Below are positions 54,322 to 64,000 of a DNA stretch of 64,000 nucleotides, piece after piece. Position 1 is the first letter of the stretch. Each line of letters begins with the position of its first letter. The notes under the pieces are model-generated. The model saw only the letters and a list, made by a program, of their open reading frames with translations, did not search any database and was not told where the DNA came from. The translations under genes were made by a program, and so were the position numbers. The stretch is from a bacterium (GTDB taxonomy: Bacteria; JAAXHH01), in contig OZ252103.1 in assembly GCA_965248395.1 (NCBI GenBank), forward strand, positions 233,396 to 297,395, written 5' to 3'.

Positions 54322-56856
54322 ATGGCCCTGAAGAAGTCCCAACTATACTCCTCAATCTGGCAAAGTTGTGATGAACTTCGCGGTGGCATGGACGCCTCCC
54401 AGTATAAGGATTACGTCCTTACGCTGCTGTTCATGAAGTACGTCTCGGACAAGGCGGCCAAAGACCCGAATATGCTCATCGAAGTGCCCGAGGGCGGGAG
54501 TTTCGCCGATATCGTAAAGCTGGTCGGCGATAAAGAGATCGGCGATAAGATAAACACGGTGATCGCCGCGCTCGCGGAAGCAAACGATCTTGGGGACGTC
54601 ATCGACCAGGCGGATTTCAACGACGAAAAGAAGCTGGGGTCCGGCAAGGAGATGCAGGATAGGCTCTCCAGGCTCGTCGCCATATTCGACGATCTCGATT
54701 TCGGAGCGAACCGGACCGATGGGGATGATCTCCTCGGCGACGCCTACGAGTATCTCATGATGCACTTCGCCACGGAATCCGGCAAGAGCAAGGGACAGTT
54801 CTACACGCCAGCGGAAGTGTCACGAGTCATGGCAAAGGTGGTCGGTATCGGTCCGGACACACGTCAGGATCAGACCATCTACGACCCGACCTGTGGATCC
54901 GGATCACTGCTCCTCAAAGCTGCTGACGAAGCGCCTATTGGCATTACCATCTATGGGCAGGAGAAGGACATCGCCACATGGTCGCTTGCGCGAATGAACC
55001 TGATACTGCACGACCATCCAACGGCATTTATCTGGCGTGAAAACACGCTGGCTGCTCCATACTTCACGGACCAACACGGTATCAAGACCTTCGACTTCGC
55101 AGTCGCCAACCCACCATTCTCCGACAAAGCCTGGTCCAACGGCCTCGATCCGGCTAATGACGAGTTTGGACGTTTCGCCTACGGCATCCCACCTGCCAGG
55201 AACGGCGACTACGCATTCCTTCTTCACCTCATTGCGTCGCTTAACAGCAGGGGCAAAGGCGCGATCATACTGCCGCACGGCGTACTGTTCCGGGGCAACA
55301 GGGAAGCGGACATCCGCAGAAACCTCATCCAACGAGGGTTCATCAAGGGTATCATCGGCCTGCCGTCCAACCTGTTCTACGGCACCGGTATCCCCGCCTG
55401 CATCCTGGTTTTGGACAAGGAAAACGCCCATGCGCGCGGAGGCATCTTCATGATTGACGCGAGCAAGGGCTTTCGCAAGGACGGTAACAAGAACCGCCTG
55501 CGCGAACTGGACCTCCACCGGATCGTCGACGTGTTCAACCGGCAGACCGAGTTGCCGCGTTATTCTCGCCTGGTACCGATCGCCGAGATCGCTAGTCCCG
55601 CTAACGACTACAACCTCAGCATCCCGCGCTACGTCGATTCCAGCGAGCCGGAAGACCTGCACGACCTCGACGCCCATTTGCACGGCGGTATTCCCGACCG
55701 TGATATCGATGCGCTCGACACCTATTGGGATGTCTTCCCGTCGTTGCGCCGAACGTTATTCGTCGGTAACGGCCGCGCGGGATACAGCGAGAGTCTCGTC
55801 GAGATCGGACATGTACAGACCGCCATTCTCGATAACGAGGAATTCAAATCGTACGAAGCCCGAGTTGCGGCCATTCTCAACGATTGGTGCAAGGCACTCG
55901 AGCCAACTTTGAAGGGTCTCAATACTGATGCCATCCCCAAGGAAATCATTCGCACCCTTGCGGAGGGTCTGCTGGCGCGTTTCGCTGACCTGCCGCTGCT
56001 TGACCCGTACGACGTGTACCAGCGGTTGATGGACTATTGGGACGAAACGATGCAGGACGATGTGTACCTTATCGCCGCGGAAGGCTGGCAGGTAGGCCGC
56101 AACCTTCGTTCCTCCTATGACAAGGAAACACCGGATTTCACTATCAAGAAGGGCCGAAAGACTACCAAGTACGTTGGTGAACTAATCCCGCATTCTTTGG
56201 TTCTCGCAAGATTCTTCAAGAACGAACAGCAAGAACTGGAGCAACTCGAGGGGGAAGTTTCCGAATTGGCGGAACGTAAGGAGGAATTCGAAGAGGAACA
56301 TGGTGCCGATGAGGGCGCTCTCAACGGCCTTGAAGGGAAGAGTGGTATTACCAAGGGTAATATACAGCAGCGCGTCATAGAGTTAAAGGAAGCCATTCTA
56401 AAGACTTGTTCCGAAGGAACGCCGAAGCACAATCAGGCAAAGTCCATCAAGAAAACAACCTTTGGCGTTCATGATTGGACCAAGAACGTCCAAGACGAAG
56501 AAGGACTATTCAAGGAGTTGGATATTCTCTACGACTATCTCCAACTCATGGAAGATGAGAAGATCCGGAAGGATACATGCAAGCAGACACGGGACACGCT
56601 ACATACTTCGGTGATCCAGAAGTACGCCACGCTCAACGAAAACGAGATAAAGACACTTGTGGTCGAAGACAAATGGTTTGCCAACATTCGGATCGCCATT
56701 GAGGGCGAGGTGCAGAGCCTGACACTGCGGCTTGCCGGGCGCGTGACAGAACTGGAAGAACGCTATGCCTGTCCGTTGCCGGAGTTGGAGCGGGAGGTTG
56801 AGGTGTTTGGTGCCAAGGTCGAGGGGCACTTGAAACGTATAGAAATTTCGCTATGA
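54322..56856 (+). CDS. hsdM: type I restriction-modification system DNA methyltransferase subunit
   Basis: The HsdM_N region, the SAM motif (DPTCGSGSLL) and the N6-adenine catalytic motif NPPF. It has a long C-terminal coiled-coil-rich extension, and GC is lower than in upstream genes. Confidence 0.85.
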   Translation: MALKKSQLYSSIWQSCDELRGGMDASQYKDYVLTLLFMKYVSDKAAKDPNMLIEVPEGGSFADIVKLVGDKEIGDKINTVIAALAEANDLGDVIDQADFNDEKKLGSGKEMQDRLSRLVAIFDDLDFGANRTDGDDLLGDAYEYLMMHFATESGKSKGQFYTPAEVSRVMAKVVGIGPDTRQDQTIYDPTCGSGSLLLKAADEAPIGITIYGQEKDIATWSLARMNLILHDHPTAFIWRENTLAAPYFTDQHGIKTFDFAVANPPFSDKAWSNGLDPANDEFGRFAYGIPPARNGDYAFLLHLIASLNSRGKGAIILPHGVLFRGNREADIRRNLIQRGFIKGIIGLPSNLFYGTGIPACILVLDKENAHARGGIFMIDASKGFRKDGNKNRLRELDLHRIVDVFNRQTELPRYSRLVPIAEIASPANDYNLSIPRYVDSSEPEDLHDLDAHLHGGIPDRDIDALDTYWDVFPSLRRTLFVGNGRAGYSESLVEIGHVQTAILDNEEFKSYEARVAAILNDWCKALEPTLKGLNTDAIPKEIIRTLAEGLLARFADLPLLDPYDVYQRLMDYWDETMQDDVYLIAAEGWQVGRNLRSSYDKETPDFTIKKGRKTTKYVGELIPHSLVLARFFKNEQQELEQLEGEVSELAERKEEFEEEHGADEGALNGLEGKSGITKGNIQQRVIELKEAILKTCSEGTPKHNQAKSIKKTTFGVHDWTKNVQDEEGLFKELDILYDYLQLMEDEKIRKDTCKQTRDTLHTSVIQKYATLNENEIKTLVVEDKWFANIRIAIEGEVQSLTLRLAGRVTELEERYACPLPELEREVEVFGAKVEGHLKRIEISL

Positions 56857-57101: not shown

Positions 57102-58434
57102 GGGTCTGTCACGGATTTTGTGTAACTGACAGTTTCATGTGATGGGCACTCTGTCTTCGTACATGATGATGAACTGGTTGATTGCGGCTGTCCAGTGGAC
57201 AAGGGGCCGGGTCCACCTTCGGGACAGATTGAGCAGGGCCAGATAGAGCAGTTTCCTGGCCGCCTCGTCCGTGGGGAAAGCGCCTCTGGTCTTGATGATC
57301 TTGCGCAGGCCCCGGTTCATGGATTCGATGGCATTCGTAGTGTAGATGACCTTCCTGATCTCCTGTGGGAAGGCGAAGAACGGGGTCAGATGGTCCCAGT
57401 GTCTGCGCCATAGCCGGCTGATCGTGGGATATTGCTTATCCCAGTGTTCGGCAAAGCGATAAAGCGCGGCCTCAGCCTGCTCCAAGGTAGCGGCCTGGTA
57501 TATCGCCCGGAGATCCTTGGCCACCTGCTTACGGTCCTTCCAGGAGACGTAGGTCAGGCTGTTACGCACCATGTGGACGATGCAGAGCTGCACCTGGGCC
57601 TTGGGGTACACCGTCTCTATGGCCTGGGGGAAGCCGGTGAGGCCGTCGCAACAGGCGATGAAGATATCGGCAACGCCCCGGTTCTTCAGTTCGGTCAGTA
57701 CGTGGAGCCAGAACTTTGCCCCTTCGTTCTGCTCGATCCAGAGCCCCAGGAGTTCCTTGTCGCCGCGCAGGTTAACGCCCAGGGCCAGGTAGACCGCCTT
57801 GTTCCGTACGCTGCCGCTATCACGTATCTTGACGAACAGGGCATCCAGGAACAGGATCGGGTAGATCTCATCCAGGGGCCGCGACTGCCAGGCCAGGGCC
57901 TCGTCGGTCACGGCGTCGGTGATCCGCGAGACCAATTCGGGCGAGATGGACACCCCGTAGAGGTCTTCGATATGGCCCTGGATATCCCGGGTGCTCATGC
58001 CCCTTGCGTACATGGAGATGATCTTGTCGTCGAAGTCGGGCCAACGCGTCTGGTACTTGCGGATCAACTTCGGATCGAAGCTGCCTTCGCGGTCCCGGGG
58101 GATCTCTACCGGCAGAGCGCCCTTGTCGTCCTTGAGCGTCTTGGTGGTCTTGCCGTTGCGACTGTTGCCGCGGTTCCTGCCATCGGGGGCATGCTTCTCG
58201 TAGCCGAGATGATCGGTGAGCTCGGCTTCCAGGATCCGCTCGGCCATGCGCTTCTTCATGCGCTTGAGCAGGCCGTCTTCGCCGAAAAGGTCCTCGGCGT
58301 CCACCCCGTCTTCCATAAGTTCATCGAGAAGACGGTCGATCTTACCTGGGGGTTTTCTTTCTCTGGCCATAGCACTTCCTCCTTTTGAGCAAGATACAGG
58401 CTATTGCCAGTTACACAAAACATGTTACAGACTC
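57102..58434 (-). mobile_element. IS256-family insertion sequence, copy 1 (1333 bp) with 8-bp target-site duplication TCGCTCAG
   Basis: Identical to copy 2 at an offset of 2481 bp. Imperfect ~30-bp terminal inverted repeats (GGGTCTGTCACGGATTTTGTGTAACTGACAG vs GAGTCTGTAACATGTTTTGTGTAACTGGCAA). The direct repeat TCGCTCAG sits at 57094-57101 and 58435-58442. Confidence 0.85.
57135..58370 (-). CDS. IS256-family (Mutator-type) transposase
   Basis: 411 aa with the Mutator/IS256 signature Q-x-C-x-x-H-x-x-R-N (VQLCIVHMVRNS) and DDE-type spacing. Confidence 0.85.
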   Translation of the reverse strand: MARERKPPGKIDRLLDELMEDGVDAEDLFGEDGLLKRMKKRMAERILEAELTDHLGYEKHAPDGRNRGNSRNGKTTKTLKDDKGALPVEIPRDREGSFDPKLIRKYQTRWPDFDDKIISMYARGMSTRDIQGHIEDLYGVSISPELVSRITDAVTDEALAWQSRPLDEIYPILFLDALFVKIRDSGSVRNKAVYLALGVNLRGDKELLGLWIEQNEGAKFWLHVLTELKNRGVADIFIACCDGLTGFPQAIETVYPKAQVQLCIVHMVRNSLTYVSWKDRKQVAKDLRAIYQAATLEQAEAALYRFAEHWDKQYPTISRLWRRHWDHLTPFFAFPQEIRKVIYTTNAIESMNRGLRKIIKTRGAFPTDEAARKLLYLALLNLSRRWTRPLVHWTAAINQFIIMYEDRVPIT

Positions 58435-58711: not shown

Positions 58712-59582
58712 GTGATGAATACGAAACGGGAGACTGTGAATAACGCCCCTGGTGATGGATGCCCTGCATTACCTGCCTGTACGCACCCGCAGACTATGCC
58801 CGCGCCGTTGCACGGCACGCAGGCAGACAGGTTGGATGAGGTGCCAGTGGGTTACAAGCGGACTGAGGTGGGGGTGATTCCAGAAGATTGGGACGTAGTG
58901 CTACTCGGCAATCTCTTTATATTCAAGAACGGTTTAAACAAGGCCAAAGGGTTTTTCGGTACGGGAACACCCATAGTCAATTACATGGACGTTTTTAAAA
59001 CCCCCGGGCTTAGAATGGACGATCTATCTGGACGAGTAAACCTGAGTCACGAGGAGATCAAAAACTTCGAGGTCCGGTTGGGTGATGTGTTCTTTACACG
59101 CACATCGGAGACAGTTGAAGACATTGGCGTGGCATCCGTTATGCTCGAAGAACCTTGTGATACCGTATTCAGTGGGTTCGTTCTTCGTGCGCGGGCTCGA
59201 GATGATCGACTTGACGACCACTATAAGCAGTACTGCTTTGGCTCCAGAGCAATCAGGTCCCAGATCGTATCAAATGCGACATACACGACGCGCGCATTGA
59301 CCAATGGTCGATCGCTGTCAGTTGTGTGGGCCACTGTACCCCCGAAACCTGAACAACGTGCTATAGCCGAGGCATTGTCGGATGTAGATGGGTTGCTCGT
59401 TGCTTTGGACGCGCTGATCGCAAAGAAACGGGCCGTAAAGTTGGCTGCAATGGAGCAACTTCTCACTGGAAAGATTCGTCTGCCGGGGTTCAGGGGGAAG
59501 TGGGAGACAACAACGCTTGGAGATATCGCAGAGATATACAATGGAGCAACGCCAAACACTCAGATTAGTGCCTACTGGAACG
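58712..59582 (+). pseudogene. hsdS: type I R-M specificity subunit hsdS, 5' part (target-recognition domain 1), disrupted by the IS insertion
   Basis: EVPVGYKRTEVGVIPEDWDVVLLGNL is the HsdS TRD N-terminal motif. The frame runs into the IS at 59583. After removing the IS and one TSD copy, the frame continues perfectly into 60924-61447 (..ISAYWNG|PIPWCTPTDIT..). Confidence 0.75.
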
Positions 59583-60915
59583 GGGTCTGTCACGGATTTT
59601 GTGTAACTGACAGTTTCATGTGATGGGCACTCTGTCTTCGTACATGATGATGAACTGGTTGATTGCGGCTGTCCAGTGGACAAGGGGCCGGGTCCACCTT
59701 CGGGACAGATTGAGCAGGGCCAGATAGAGCAGTTTCCTGGCCGCCTCGTCCGTGGGGAAAGCGCCTCTGGTCTTGATGATCTTGCGCAGGCCCCGGTTCA
59801 TGGATTCGATGGCATTCGTAGTGTAGATGACCTTCCTGATCTCCTGTGGGAAGGCGAAGAACGGGGTCAGATGGTCCCAGTGTCTGCGCCATAGCCGGCT
59901 GATCGTGGGATATTGCTTATCCCAGTGTTCGGCAAAGCGATAAAGCGCGGCCTCAGCCTGCTCCAAGGTAGCGGCCTGGTATATCGCCCGGAGATCCTTG
60001 GCCACCTGCTTACGGTCCTTCCAGGAGACGTAGGTCAGGCTGTTACGCACCATGTGGACGATGCAGAGCTGCACCTGGGCCTTGGGGTACACCGTCTCTA
60101 TGGCCTGGGGGAAGCCGGTGAGGCCGTCGCAACAGGCGATGAAGATATCGGCAACGCCCCGGTTCTTCAGTTCGGTCAGTACGTGGAGCCAGAACTTTGC
60201 CCCTTCGTTCTGCTCGATCCAGAGCCCCAGGAGTTCCTTGTCGCCGCGCAGGTTAACGCCCAGGGCCAGGTAGACCGCCTTGTTCCGTACGCTGCCGCTA
60301 TCACGTATCTTGACGAACAGGGCATCCAGGAACAGGATCGGGTAGATCTCATCCAGGGGCCGCGACTGCCAGGCCAGGGCCTCGTCGGTCACGGCGTCGG
60401 TGATCCGCGAGACCAATTCGGGCGAGATGGACACCCCGTAGAGGTCTTCGATATGGCCCTGGATATCCCGGGTGCTCATGCCCCTTGCGTACATGGAGAT
60501 GATCTTGTCGTCGAAGTCGGGCCAACGCGTCTGGTACTTGCGGATCAACTTCGGATCGAAGCTGCCTTCGCGGTCCCGGGGGATCTCTACCGGCAGAGCG
60601 CCCTTGTCGTCCTTGAGCGTCTTGGTGGTCTTGCCGTTGCGACTGTTGCCGCGGTTCCTGCCATCGGGGGCATGCTTCTCGTAGCCGAGATGATCGGTGA
60701 GCTCGGCTTCCAGGATCCGCTCGGCCATGCGCTTCTTCATGCGCTTGAGCAGGCCGTCTTCGCCGAAAAGGTCCTCGGCGTCCACCCCGTCTTCCATAAG
60801 TTCATCGAGAAGACGGTCGATCTTACCTGGGGGTTTTCTTTCTCTGGCCATAGCACTTCCTCCTTTTGAGCAAGATACAGGCTATTGCCAGTTACACAAA
60901 ACATGTTACAGACTC
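59583..60915 (-). mobile_element. IS256-family insertion sequence, copy 2 (1333 bp) inserted in hsdS, 8-bp target-site duplication CTGGAACG
   Basis: Identical to copy 1. The direct repeat CTGGAACG sits at 59575-59582 and 60916-60923. Confidence 0.85.
59616..60851 (-). CDS. IS256-family (Mutator-type) transposase (identical to the copy at 57135-58370)
   Basis: An identical 411-aa product. Confidence 0.85.
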   Translation of the reverse strand: MARERKPPGKIDRLLDELMEDGVDAEDLFGEDGLLKRMKKRMAERILEAELTDHLGYEKHAPDGRNRGNSRNGKTTKTLKDDKGALPVEIPRDREGSFDPKLIRKYQTRWPDFDDKIISMYARGMSTRDIQGHIEDLYGVSISPELVSRITDAVTDEALAWQSRPLDEIYPILFLDALFVKIRDSGSVRNKAVYLALGVNLRGDKELLGLWIEQNEGAKFWLHVLTELKNRGVADIFIACCDGLTGFPQAIETVYPKAQVQLCIVHMVRNSLTYVSWKDRKQVAKDLRAIYQAATLEQAEAALYRFAEHWDKQYPTISRLWRRHWDHLTPFFAFPQEIRKVIYTTNAIESMNRGLRKIIKTRGAFPTDEAARKLLYLALLNLSRRWTRPLVHWTAAINQFIIMYEDRVPIT

Positions 60916-60923
60916 CTGGAACG

Positions 60924-61447
60924 GGCCGATTCCGTGGTGTACACCGACCGACATCACGGCTAAGCCGGGGAAGTACCTCCTTCATACTGAGCGGAGCGTC
61001 ACTGCGGCGGGATTGGCCAGTTGCGCAGCACGACTGCTTCCTGTCGCCACTCTTCTCTTGTGCAGCCGTGCAACCATCGGGGAGATTAAGATCGTTGTAT
61101 CACCGGTATGCACTAACCAAGGCTTCAAGTCAATCGTCTGTAAAACCGATGTGTCGAACGAGTTTCTGTATTACCTGCTTTTGACATTTAAGCCGCAACT
61201 GATAGAGCGGGCCATCGGGTCAACTTTTCTTGAAATCAGTAAGTCTGATGTGGCATCACTTACATTACGTATCCCTACTCATACGGAACAGCACGCCATC
61301 GCCAACATTCTCTCCGACATGGACGACGAGATAACCGCACTGGAACATCGCCGGGACAAGACACAAGCAGTCAAGCAGGGTATGATACAGCAGCTTCTCA
61401 CCGGACGGGTACGATTGGTCGAATCAGAGAGAACTGCATATGCCTGA
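60924..61447 (+). pseudogene. hsdS: hsdS 3' part (target-recognition domain 2 and C-terminal conserved helix)
   Basis: PIPWCTPTDIT (the GxIPWxxxxDl HsdS motif) and the C-terminal conserved region EQHAIANILSDMDDEITALEHRRDKTQAVKQGMIQQLLTG. Confidence 0.7.
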
Positions 61448-64000
61448 CATTGAACATGAGATTCGTACTTGGCTTCACCAACAACAGGATTGGCTTCAGG
61501 AAGCGGTCGAGAAACTGCTCGCTACGGGCAGTTTGGACGATAGCGACATCCAAGCCATCACCGATCGTCTCAAGACCACGTCCGGGCAAAAGGTAACCAC
61601 TCACCGCACATTCGAAGGTATTGGATCTACCTCCGCTTCCTCGACTGCAGTACACCTCCTAGAAATCGGCGACATCTGCGGCATTGAGAATCTATGTCCG
61701 CACAGTCCCCTAAAGTTCGGAACTGGAAATCTTGCGGTGATCTACGGTCCCAACGGATCGGGAAAAACCGGTTACGTTCGCATCATCAAGCGAGCGTGTG
61801 GGAAACCCCACGCGACAGAGCTCAAGTCCAACGTCTTCGAATTTCGGCCTGCAAGGCAACTATGTCAGATTCGCTACAGTTTGGCGGGAAGCGAGCAATT
61901 GATTACATGGCAGGCAAACTCCACTCCGATACAGGACCTCCGAGCCGTCGATGTTTTTGACGCTGATGCTGCCACTTTTTATATCAGCCAAGAGAAAGCA
62001 ATCTCCTACACACCACCGACCATCAGTTTGTTCGAGGCGTTGGCATCTGTGTGCGACAGAATTAAAAAGAGACTTCATTTTGAACGGGATCGTCTGGTCA
62101 GCACACTCCCCTCTTTGCCGCCAGAATACCGTGCTACTAAAGCTGGTAAAGTTTATGCTGCGTTGAGATACGATATTAGCAAGCAAGAGATCCAAAGTCT
62201 AACACAATGGGGTCAGGATAACGAAGAAGAACTCAAGAAACTGACTGAACGTCTAAATGCGGACGACCCGGCAAAGTCCGCGCAATTAAAGCGTAAAACA
62301 AAGAGCCAACTTGACCGACTCGGTGCAGAATTGAAACACGCCGCATTCGCCGTTGGACCTCAACAGTTGGAAACCATTCGGAATTCTCGTAGGAAGGCAC
62401 ATCAGAAACGTAAGATAGCCACTGAAGTGGCTGACGCTCAGTTAGGTAGTGCTAAATTAGACGGCATTGGGACGGAAACGTGGAATGCACTATGGAAGGC
62501 AGCACGCCTTTATTCACAGACAGCCTATCCAGAATTTGAATTCCCCGTTACAGAGAACGGTGCCCTATGCGTTTTGTGTCATCAGGAATTGGCTCAAGAA
62601 GCACAGAATCGTTTGCAAGAATTTGAAGCATTTGTCCAAGGGGTAGTGGAGACTGAAGCTAAGTCGGCTGAAGAAGCCTACAGCAAAGCACTAGCGAGGT
62701 TGCCGACGCAGTGGGATGACGAGGAAACCCGTACGAGATGTGAGGTCGCCGGGCTGACCGATGAGGATTGGACCGAGAAATTAGGAGCCTTTTGGTCCAA
62801 ATTAGGCAAGGCCCGCGATGATCTCCTAAACGGCGAGGCAGATGCAGAGGCTGTCGCAATAGAGCCACCTGATGAACTTTTGACCGAAGTAGCATGCCGT
62901 GCCGAATCGTTGGAGCACGAAGCCCTGCAAAATGATGAGGATGCGAAGAACTTCGATCGGGAAAGGGCGATTCAAGAAAGGCTGAATCTGGAGGCTCTGC
63001 GCTGGACAGCACAGCAAGCTACTGCAATCCACTGCGATATTGCACGTCTAAAGAATATGAGGAAGTATGAGAAATGGGAGCAATTGGCGAACTCACGAAA
63101 GGTATCCCTTGAGGCTAGCCATGTCGCCGAGAAGGTAATCACGCAGGTGTACGTGGATCGGTTCAACCAGGAACTCAAGATGTTGGGTGCATCGCGAATA
63201 AAGGTTGAGCTAACCAAAACCCAAACGAAAAAAGGGCAAGCACTACATGGGCTTCGCCTGAAGGGTGTCAAACTGACAACAGAGAACGCACCTGAACAAA
63301 TTCTGAGCGACGGAGAGCGGCGCGTCGTTTCTCTGGCGGCGTTTTTGGCCGATGTGGCAGAGAAGCCTCACGCGGCACCATTCATTTTCGACGATTCGAT
63401 ATCGTCGCTGGATCAAGACTTCGAGTGGCAGGTGGCGACTCGCCTTGCACAACTAGCGCAGAGCCGTCAGGTCCTGGTGTTCACACATCGGCTTTCTCTA
63501 TATGGTGCGATGGAGGACGCCGCAAAGAAAGTTGGCCAAGATTGGAAGAATAGAAACCTCCAGCAATGCTGCATAGAATTTTTTTCAGGAACCGCAGGGC
63601 ACCCGGCGGATGATTCTGTTTGGAATGTCAACACCAAGACGGGAAACAATATCCTTTTGGCGCGTCTTGACGAGGCTAAAAATGCCGGTAAAACGGGTGG
63701 TGCCAGTGCTTACCGGATCCAAGCGCAGGCGATTTGCACTGAATTTCGAAAGCTTCTGGAGCGAACAGTCGAAGATGACCTACTGAACAAAATAGTACGA
63801 CGCCACCGAAGGAGTATCACGACCGACCATAGACTTAAACCACTTGCAAGTATAATCCCTAGTGACTGCAGGTTTATAGATGATCTTATGACTAAGTACT
63901 CAGGCTATGTGCACAGTCAGTCAGAGGAAGCGCCGATTCCACTACCTGATGAGGCAGAACTGCGGAAAGACATGGAGTCGCTGAAGAATTGGCGCGAGGA
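61441..64000 (+). CDS. RloC-like anticodon nuclease (ABC-ATPase head with coiled-coil CxxC zinc-hook insert plus C-terminal PrrC-type nuclease region); 3' end beyond window
   Basis: ATG 61441 overlaps the hsdS stop (ATGCCTGA). The frame is open for more than 850 codons to the window end. It is absent from the ORF track because there is no in-window stop. Walker A VIYGPNGSGKTG, a long coiled-coil-like segment with CVLC at its centre, the signature-like LSDGERR, Walker B IFDDSISSLD, and a C-terminal R-x3-E (FRKLLER) followed by His residues. Confidence 0.65.

Follow-up and report, generated by a model that had tools for sequence, protein, structure and literature searches.

Gene X at the end of a type I restriction-modification operon

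The stretch of DNA analysed here (the window; 64,000 nucleotides, contig OZ252103.1 of assembly GCA_965248395.1, positions 233,396 to 297,395) ends within a type I restriction-modification (R-M) operon, in which a long reading frame, here referred to as gene X, directly follows hsdS. The ATG of gene X lies at 61440-61442 on the + strand and overlaps the stop of an open reading frame (ORF) that holds the C-terminal fragment of hsdS, 60866..61447 (ATGCCTGA). From 61440, the + strand contains 853 codons without a stop up to the window end. None of 2000 composition-preserving shuffles was open for 853 codons (the longest reached 196), and the remaining five frames across the region contain 27-55 stops each; the gene X frame is beyond chance.

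The first-pass annotation of this sequence had described an uninterrupted frame of more than 850 codons that overlaps the hsdS stop and is coupled to the type I R-M operon. This frame is real and its ATG does overlap the hsdS stop, but the start had been placed at 61441, from where the frame is full of stops. The same annotation had supposed that the ORF was missing from the ORF list because the lister skips ORFs that are not closed within the source; this was confirmed, as gene X is absent from the lister output. Its remark that such genes are left unannotated did not hold, since its absence from the track is explained solely by the frame continuing past the window end. Databases label its homologs 'AAA family ATPase', and several names from JGI read 'energy-coupling factor transporter ATP-binding protein EcfA2'. 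A protein of 864 amino acids (aa) in public data (P0001, from a 3.7-Mb contig) is 100% identical to the gene X product, so that the window lacks no more than the last 11 residues (DFKKRPAEDGV).

Gene X and its parts are as follows.

61440..64000, +: gene X, long-type RloC-like ABC ATPase; 853 of 864 codons, with 11 codons and the stop beyond the window
61440..61649, +: N-terminal helical extension, aa 1-70; conserved, absent from PrrC and short RloC
61746..61769, +: Walker A / P-loop GPNGSGKT, aa 103-110; invariant G103, N105, S107, G108, K109
62007..63182, +: coiled-coil insert, helical, arms aa ~190-362 and 386-581, splitting the ABC head (AF2 secondary structure)
62568..62579, +: CxxC zinc-hook motif CVLC, aa 377-380, at the turn joining both arms; C377 and C380 invariant in 42 sequences
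63303..63323, +: ABC signature LSDGERR, aa 622-628; invariant S623, G625, E626, R628
63378..63494, +: Walker B / D-loop PFIFDDSISSLD, aa 647-658, and His-switch FTHRL, aa 681-685
63525..64000, +: C-terminal alpha-helical domain, aa 696-864 (cut at 853), putative effector
63744-63767, +: FRKLLERT (R770, E774), conserved C-domain motif
63798-63815, +: RRHRRS, conserved C-domain motif
63894-63923, +: KYSGYVHSQS (H825), conserved C-domain motif

Architecture and conserved residues of the gene X product

The gene X product consists of four parts, namely, an N-terminal helical extension, an SMC/Rad50-like ABC head, a hooked coiled coil, and a helical C-terminal domain (C-domain). Conservation was assessed in an alignment of 42 homologs (52-85% identity), and residues of the C-domain were counted in 225 sequences. 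The motifs that had been named in the first-pass annotation all exist, while their positions were partly off: the P-loop, VIYGPNGSGKTG, is located at aa 100-111, as described, and the C-terminal R-x3-E element FRKLLER at aa 769-775, whereas ALCVLCHQE, given at about aa 395, lies at aa 375-383, and LSDGERR and IFDDSISSLD, given at about aa 680-700, lie at aa 622-628 and 649-658, respectively.

The N-terminal extension contains the invariant residues W11, L12, D17, W18, Q20, K45, and G49, is modelled as three helices (pLDDT 77-94), and had no match in a Pfam scan; the Walker A Lys is K109 in the gene X product and K44 in GkaRloC. This long-type-specific extension is a candidate R-M-interaction or DNA-binding module. 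The coiled coil is ~400 aa long, and the CVLC turn between its arms is non-helical in the predicted model. The ABC signature aligns with those of RloC and PrrC in hhalign. Around Walker B and the His-switch, D651, D652, S655, S656, D658, T682, and H683 are invariant, and BLASTP as well as hhalign pair the residues of this region with D215/D216 and H251 of PrrC.

The C-domain (~165 aa) contains a conserved polar set, i.e., R770-x3-E774, E778, R788, R790/R791, S821, and H825-S-Q. In the 42-homolog alignment, R770, E774, E778, D780, R788, R790, H825, S826, and Q827 are invariant; among the 225 sequences, R770, E778, R788, S821, and H825 are invariant and E774 is present in 224. The copy in the window keeps every family-invariant residue, and its only changes at near-conserved positions are E824V, N797H, and C822G.

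The AlphaFold model (mean pLDDT 79) shows helices 732-753, 755-781, 807-823, and 838-861 forming a bundle after the head. Foldseek against the PDB retrieved the heads of SMC, cohesin, condensin, Rad50, RecN, LmuB, JetC, and a retron-associated ATPase, with E values down to 4e-8. The SMC/Rad50 heads, together with the CxxC at the arm turn, bear out the Rad50-like head and hook that had been anticipated for a predicted structure. A search of a viral fold library gave no matches, and sequence searches of the PDB, with the single sequence or the C-domain profile, gave SMC, Rad50, and ABC heads only and none for the C-domain.

Placement in the RloC family

Several profile models recognize the gene X product. 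Pfam AAA_13 (PF13166) matches with 55.5 bits (cutoff 36) over aa 375-697 and profile positions 256-583 of 713, the match starting at the CVLC turn, and Pfam SMC_N matches as well. Sub-model PDLC04893 of the PADLOC candidate system PDC-S06 matches end to end (1022 bits; aa 1-853 on profile positions 1-854 of 862), and there are further matches to the PDC-S06 models PDLC04891, 04888, and 04892 and to the PADLOC models LmuB and mad3. The PADLOC PrrC hidden Markov model (HMM) touches aa 648-697 only, the Walker B region (E 1.5e-4), compared with 491 bits for the PrrC of Escherichia coli (EcoPrrC). PHROG 2801, an RloC-type family, matches aa 569-702. NCBIfam gave no match above cutoff, only weak matches of ABC-transporter ATPases at the signature and Walker B. 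When the C-domain profile was searched with HMMER, the best 150 of 1380 clusters all belonged to the same family.

The founding definition of RloC from 2008 comprises ABC motifs, a coiled-coil insert with CXXC, the manually identified pattern Arg-X3-Glu-X36-52-His, and a length of 658-897 aa (PMC2610378). The gene X product shows every one of these features at the pattern level: ABC motifs, a central CxxC, R770-x3-E774-x50-H825, and 864 aa. Its distance from Walker B to the Arg of the triad is 118-119 aa, compared with 120 aa in GkaRloC (D572 to R692). By tblastn, it is related over 98-99% of its length to two plasmid-borne entries of the founding list, Swit_4992 of S. wittichii (#30; E 4e-51) and a protein of B. 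phymatum (#31; E 3e-111). The identity of both entries was checked by length and flanking genes: Swit_4992 has 881 aa and lies beside a carbamoyltransferase gene, and the B. phymatum gene lies between those for a diguanylate cyclase and a DNA ligase, each matching the published description. The R, E, and H columns are conserved across all three proteins. Entry #31 is the closer relative and matches the same PADLOC sub-model (1081 bits). Gene X thus belongs to a branch that has been listed among the 'RloC orthologs' since 2008 and that is also the PADLOC candidate PDC-S06, and the RloC architecture proposed in the first-pass annotation stands: an ABC head, a long coiled coil with CxxC, and a C-domain in a protein of 864 aa with homology to #30 and #31. 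As judged from these alignments, the ATPase and hook chassis is clearly homologous to that of RloC.

Comparison of the C-domain with PrrC and RloC

Whether the homology to RloC extends into the C-domain bears directly on the reading of gene X as an anticodon nuclease (ACNase) of the PrrC/RloC kind. Reference proteins were recovered from nucleotide sequences. For EcoPrrC, the LARP peptide KYGDSNKSFSY (printed in PMC3025547) was back-translated and viral contigs were scanned; the recovered protein has 396 aa, is encoded downstream of hsdS, and fits all published residue numbers. For the short type, ortholog #60 of the founding list (746 aa) was recovered by scanning the Shewanella ANA-3 plasmid. 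This ANA-3 RloC matches Pfam AAA_13 over profile positions 1-713 (595 bits) and so covers the whole profile; AAA_13 is therefore in effect the canonical short-type RloC model. The comparison set comprised 12 diverse PrrCs, nine short-type RloCs, and four deep long-type relatives. Isolated C-domain profiles were compared by hhalign against a block-shuffle null (60 shuffles each), and anchored hhalign runs extended from the ABC signature through to the C-terminus.

As a control, the C-domains of PrrC and short RloC found each other (P=4.5e-4, 49 columns, triads correctly paired), with a score of 28.4 that was reached by 0/60 shuffles (null 14.8 ± 3.1). The anchored control aligned 171 columns (E 2.6e-14) and reached H356.

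The gene X family behaved differently, and the following results weigh against an ACNase domain in gene X. Against the short RloC C-domain, the isolated profile gave P=0.34 and a score of 12.2, which 34/60 shuffles reached (null 12.8 ± 2.4). Against the PrrC C-domain, it gave P=0.033 for a 12-column, non-collinear match scoring 18.2 (null 12.3 ± 2.4; 0/60 reach this), and a Swit-like subset gave P=0.073 and a score of 16.5 (null 12.7 ± 2.7; 4/60 reach this). The shuffle nulls agree with this negative outcome. Anchored alignments of the gene X family with short RloC (77 columns, E 8e-14) and with PrrC (76 columns, E 2e-7) both end ~12 residues past the His-switch, and the PADLOC PrrC HMM, Pfam AAA_13, and PHROG 2801 likewise cover the ATPase part only. 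PrrC requires R349 and N352, and RloC has kept both (PMC3025547); the R349 equivalent in the gene X family is K (188/225) or R (24/225), and the N352 equivalent is an invariant S. Entry #31, the closer relative of gene X, had been flagged 'Poor ACNase triad?' by the founding authors (PMC2610378). The literature found on PDC-S06 consists of surveys, with no functional work found for long-type members.

The isolated C-domain also hit no Pfam family at E<10. Similarity to the nuclease domain, on which the first-pass annotation had let its ACNase reading depend, is thus essentially not detectable. The profile comparisons and the changed R349 and N352 equivalents mean that homology of the C-domain to a validated ACNase domain is not demonstrated; by these measures, the C-domain of gene X is not detectably homologous to the experimentally validated domain. 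'Anticodon nuclease' as a label for gene X has failed the controlled homology test and is unproven.

Several weaker observations point the other way, none of them significant alone. Greedy hhalign places CIEFFSG on YMLESFEDG and FRKLLERT on LRNLYEKT, so that R770/E774 fall on R320/E324. Two independent profile builds put H825-S826 on H356-S357 of PrrC, with a Pro-rich loop and the last helix coming next. The stretch R-A-I-N-R-H-S-H of short RloC has M-S-R-A-N-T-H-S-H as its counterpart in Swit_4992. Lastly, the AAA_13 match in both founding-list long-type proteins runs to profile position ~645, where ANA-3 RloC has the Glu of its R-x3-E. The weak, recurrent local matches of H825 to H356 keep a very remote homology of the C-domain possible. 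An alternative register that places PrrC H356 on D796/N797 (H797 in the window copy) was rejected, as position 797 is N in 151/225 sequences and H in 2.

Loci of relatives

Twelve loci of relatives with an intact gene X, from Latescibacterota, Acidobacteriota, Armatimonadota, Gammaproteobacteria, and others, were compared. The order hsdM-hsdS-X-hsdR-YgjP was found in 11/12, the Marinobacter locus being the one without R-M linkage. The modules of the relatives are often flanked by integrases, and gene X frequently overlaps the frames of both hsdS and hsdR. Within a mobile type I module of the order hsdM-hsdS-X-[variable defence cargo]-hsdR-ygjP, gene X thus takes third place. Among RloC orthologs as a whole, 8/73 are linked to R-M genes, whereas prrC always is (PMC2610378). 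The characteristic link of RloC to type I genes that the first-pass annotation asserts is accordingly wrong for RloC in general and true for this subfamily.

What lies between gene X and hsdR varies from locus to locus, and this slot serves as a site for defence cargo within the type I operon. One such slot (L001:12704-17451) contains a SLATT_3/SLATT_1 effector, a TGT-like protein, an Ogg-HhH glycosylase, QueC, a ThsB-type TIR protein, and a PIN protein; another (L013:13035-16645) contains an MmeI-like type IIG/L enzyme and a 222-aa ORF. Other slots carry DUF1828, or a Schlafen/AlbA_2-type ATPase with HsdR_N fragments (L050).

Gene X copies at loci in metagenome-assembled genomes of Latescibacterota (L006, L007, L008, L009, L010, L012) are often broken: L006 carries a ~1.7 kb insertion between aa 583 and 578, L007-L009 have apparent frameshifts, L010 retains aa 1-389 only, and L012 aa 2-60 only. 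These broken copies could be due to decay of a toxic gene or to assembly error.

An 896-aa long-type relative lies beside tmexCD2 on the Klebsiella michiganensis plasmid NZ_CP075883.1 (L045:4001-6691) and is widespread on clinical multidrug-resistance plasmids (~110 in Klebsiella, many in Pseudomonas and Raoultella). With this relative of Klebsiella and Pseudomonas, tblastn aligns aa 1-683 only; 'effector-domain swapping' was nevertheless rejected, as the 896-aa protein aligns through a highly diverged C-domain in which R-x3-E and H-D are kept.

The type I R-M operon in the window

The operon that precedes gene X comprises the following features.

54322..56856, +: hsdM, 844 aa, the operon's first gene; Pfam HsdM_N and N6_Mtase, E 2e-98
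57102..58434, -: insertion sequence (IS) of the IS256 family, copy 1, between hsdM and hsdS; 8-bp target duplication TCGCTCAG
58712..59582, +: hsdS 5' fragment, start codon uncertain, cut by IS copy 2; Pfam Methylase_S
59583..60915, -: IS256-family copy 2, inside hsdS; 8-bp target duplication CTGGAACG
60924..61447, +: hsdS 3' fragment with the second target-recognition domain; Pfam Methylase_S, E 5.8e-21

The NCBIfam hsdM model gives 262 bits for the first gene (cutoff 242.75), and hsdR of this genome would be positioned beyond the window end. Both IS copies are 1333 bp long, 100% identical, and bounded by terminal inverted repeats, and they encode on the minus strand a Mutator-type transposase of 411 aa (Pfam Transposase_mut, E 1e-128). 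Their complete identity and intact target duplications indicate that they are recent, i.e., they are recent independent insertions into one R-M operon. Joining 59582 to 60924, by which IS copy 2 and one duplication are removed, restores an uninterrupted hsdS ORF. As encoded here, with hsdS split by an IS, the R-M part is probably non-functional, and expression of gene X may be altered by the insertions. A hybrid ORF that begins inside the IS end (60866) still ends across the gene X start codon, and translational coupling of gene X may persist via this ORF, 60866..61447. A promoter/terminator scan between the IS and gene X was uninformative (1 site vs 0.6 expected).

The GC content is 0.548 in hsdM, 0.52 in hsdS, and 0.505 in gene X vs 0.602 for the rest of the window; the low values of the module are consistent with horizontal acquisition. 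The window genes upstream of it (encoding an aldehyde dehydrogenase, a 2OG-Fe(II) oxygenase, and PhyH) are syntenic with the relative L013. GC content and this synteny together suggest that the R-M/X module is an island at a conserved chromosomal site.

Proposed function and alternative explanations

The gene X product is probably a latent, R-M-coupled abortive-infection RNase of the PrrC/RloC kind. Three features argue for parts of this proposal. The polar residues that are invariant across 225 sequences argue that the C-domain is catalytic; the ATPase-hook chassis argues for ATP-/DNA-dependent regulation as in Rad50 and RloC; and the position between hsdS and hsdR with overlapping frames, as for PrrC and EcoprrI, argues for co-production with, and probably control by, the restriction complex. 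The protein would be made alongside the restriction complex and held inactive, its ATPase and hook would sense DNA or a restriction-failure signal, and the C-domain, whose probable nature is that of a metal-independent HEPN-like RNase, would then attack tRNA or other RNA, so that translation stops. The RNase activity, the tRNA-anticodon target, and the silencing by the R-M complex are all drawn by analogy with the known systems. Cleavage directed specifically at tRNA anticodon loops is the more doubtful part of the proposal and is put forward tentatively.

The alternative that survives best, though it is considered unlikely, retains the chassis and replaces the nuclease: the C-domain would be an RNase of another specificity, a DNase, or a non-catalytic domain that binds HsdR or HsdM, and gene X would encode a DNA-sensing, SMC-like type I accessory protein nearer to LmuB of Lamassu, JetC of Wadjet, and the retron-associated ATPases. 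Its strength lies in the C-domain, which has no Pfam family and shows no profile similarity to PrrC or RloC under conditions where the PrrC-RloC relationship is detected, and in which the equivalents of R349 and N352 are changed. The additional invariant residues E778, R788, and R790/R791 (in an inserted loop), absent from PrrC and RloC, suggest a remodelled site, and the head has similarities to those of LmuB, JetC, and retron ATPases in addition to Rad50. The PrrC/RloC-like features of the same domain speak for the other side, namely the R-x3-E...H-S pattern, the spacing from Walker B, the order of the helices, the Pro-rich loop after the His, and the repeated placement of the best local hhalign matches on H356; invariant Arg, Glu, and His moreover favour catalysis over mere binding. 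It is equally improbable that the long-type R-M-embedded (PDLC04893-like) branch is no ACNase at all and represents a distinct restriction-coupled effector, which would owe another substrate or chemistry to its N-terminal extension and to a remodelled catalytic C-domain with the invariant R770, E774, E778, R788, S821, and H825. If true, type I R-M systems would have a third 'second line' module that evolved independently on the RloC ATPase-hook chassis.

Less probable still is that the module in this genome is a decaying remnant in which gene X is silent or becoming a pseudogene. Two IS256-family copies in the operon, one of them splitting hsdS, would fit such decay, as would the related Latescibacterota loci with an interrupted, apparently frameshifted, or truncated gene X (L006-L010, L012) and the lack of an above-chance promoter-like signal between the IS and gene X. 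Yet gene X is intact and retains all family-invariant residues (only E824V, N797H, and C822G differ), the IS copies are recent, and the hybrid ORF from 60866 may preserve translational coupling. The notion of an ordinary housekeeping ABC/SMC ATPase that lies beside R-M genes by chance, for which the EcfA2 names at JGI for several homologs and the weak NCBIfam ABC-transporter matches could be cited, is effectively refuted by profile, fold, and locus evidence, as those matches are far under their cutoffs and span ~70 residues only, the protein has a coiled coil, a hook, and an extra C-domain and matches a defence-candidate HMM end to end, and gene X resides inside mobile R-M modules in 11/12 loci from several phyla.

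A latent RNase coupled to R-M thus remains the preferred reading for gene X, which adds a Latescibacterota example to a widespread and experimentally untouched branch of RloC-like defence ATPases. For annotation, caution is advised, as the terms 'RloC' and 'wobble-nucleotide-excising tRNase' are not transferable to all AAA_13 or PDC-S06 proteins.

Comparison with known systems

The relatives against which gene X can be set range from SMC-type ATPases to the two ACNases. With Rad50, SMC, RecN, LmuB, and JetC, the gene X product shares the head fold and an antiparallel coiled coil, and with Rad50 also the CxxC hook. In contrast to Rad50, SMC, LmuB, and JetC, its coiled coil is far shorter and segmented, it has a C-terminal putative effector domain of its own, and no gene for an Mre11, kleisin, or LmuA partner adjoins gene X. 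PDC-S06, to which gene X is tied by the end-to-end match to PDLC04893, is a computational candidate whose single label pools models of the long type with those of the short, canonical RloC-like type.

PrrC and RloC were reportedly placed among the RNases of the HEPN superfamily by Anantharaman et al. in 2013. Members of this superfamily, e.g., MNT-HEPN toxins, Csx1/Csm6, and RnlA, have a four-helix up-down bundle and an R-x4-6-H catalytic motif. RloC has been validated for the proteins of Geobacillus kaustophilus and Acinetobacter baylyi; its activity is the excision of the wobble nucleotide, and ACNases are regulated by ATP/DNA or GTP/dTTP. With RloC, gene X has in common the ABC head into which a coiled coil bearing a central CxxC is inserted, an extra C-terminal domain, and the AAA_13 match. 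It differs in ~65-70 extra conserved N-terminal residues, in a C-domain that profile-profile comparison cannot align with the short-type RloC nuclease domain, in the motif [KR]-Y-S-x-Y-E-H-S in place of R-x2-N-x2-S-H, in the inserted RRHRRS loop, and in the nearly constant position of its subfamily between hsdS and hsdR, whereas RloC in general is rarely linked. The short-type RloC of Shewanella ANA-3 (#60; L032:11255-21386, NC_008573.1) is divergently oriented and adjoins a type I R-M operon, and it also lies near mobile mystery proteins A/B and a Qat system; the neighbours given for it in 2008 are transposases only (PMC2610378). The R-M linkage of canonical RloC may thus be under-counted.

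The complete EcoPrrC gene recovered here follows hsdS on a contig of 95 kb with a viral classification (L019:79-1957, IMGVR_UViG_3300029516_000004), and 99.7% identical copies occur on the E. coli plasmids CP057689.1 and CP057875.1 (pig and cattle faeces); the classic prr locus is therefore carried on mobile elements. PrrC of the EcoprrI type Ic R-M locus differs from the gene X product in size (~400 vs 864 aa) and has neither the coiled coil nor the hook. The LARP tRNA-Lys motif and the essential H295, H315, R349, and N352 have no clear counterpart in gene X, and a LARP-like stretch is absent from the gene X product. The two proteins share homologous motifs of an ABC-type nucleoside triphosphatase and a similar order of R-x3-E, H-S, a Pro-rich loop, and a last helix. 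They also share the place of the gene: PrrC homologs follow hsdS, overlap its stop by 4 nt, and usually precede hsdR. The branch to which gene X belongs hence joins a PrrC-like genomic context, hsdS-X-hsdR with overlapping frames, with a Rad50 architecture like that of RloC.

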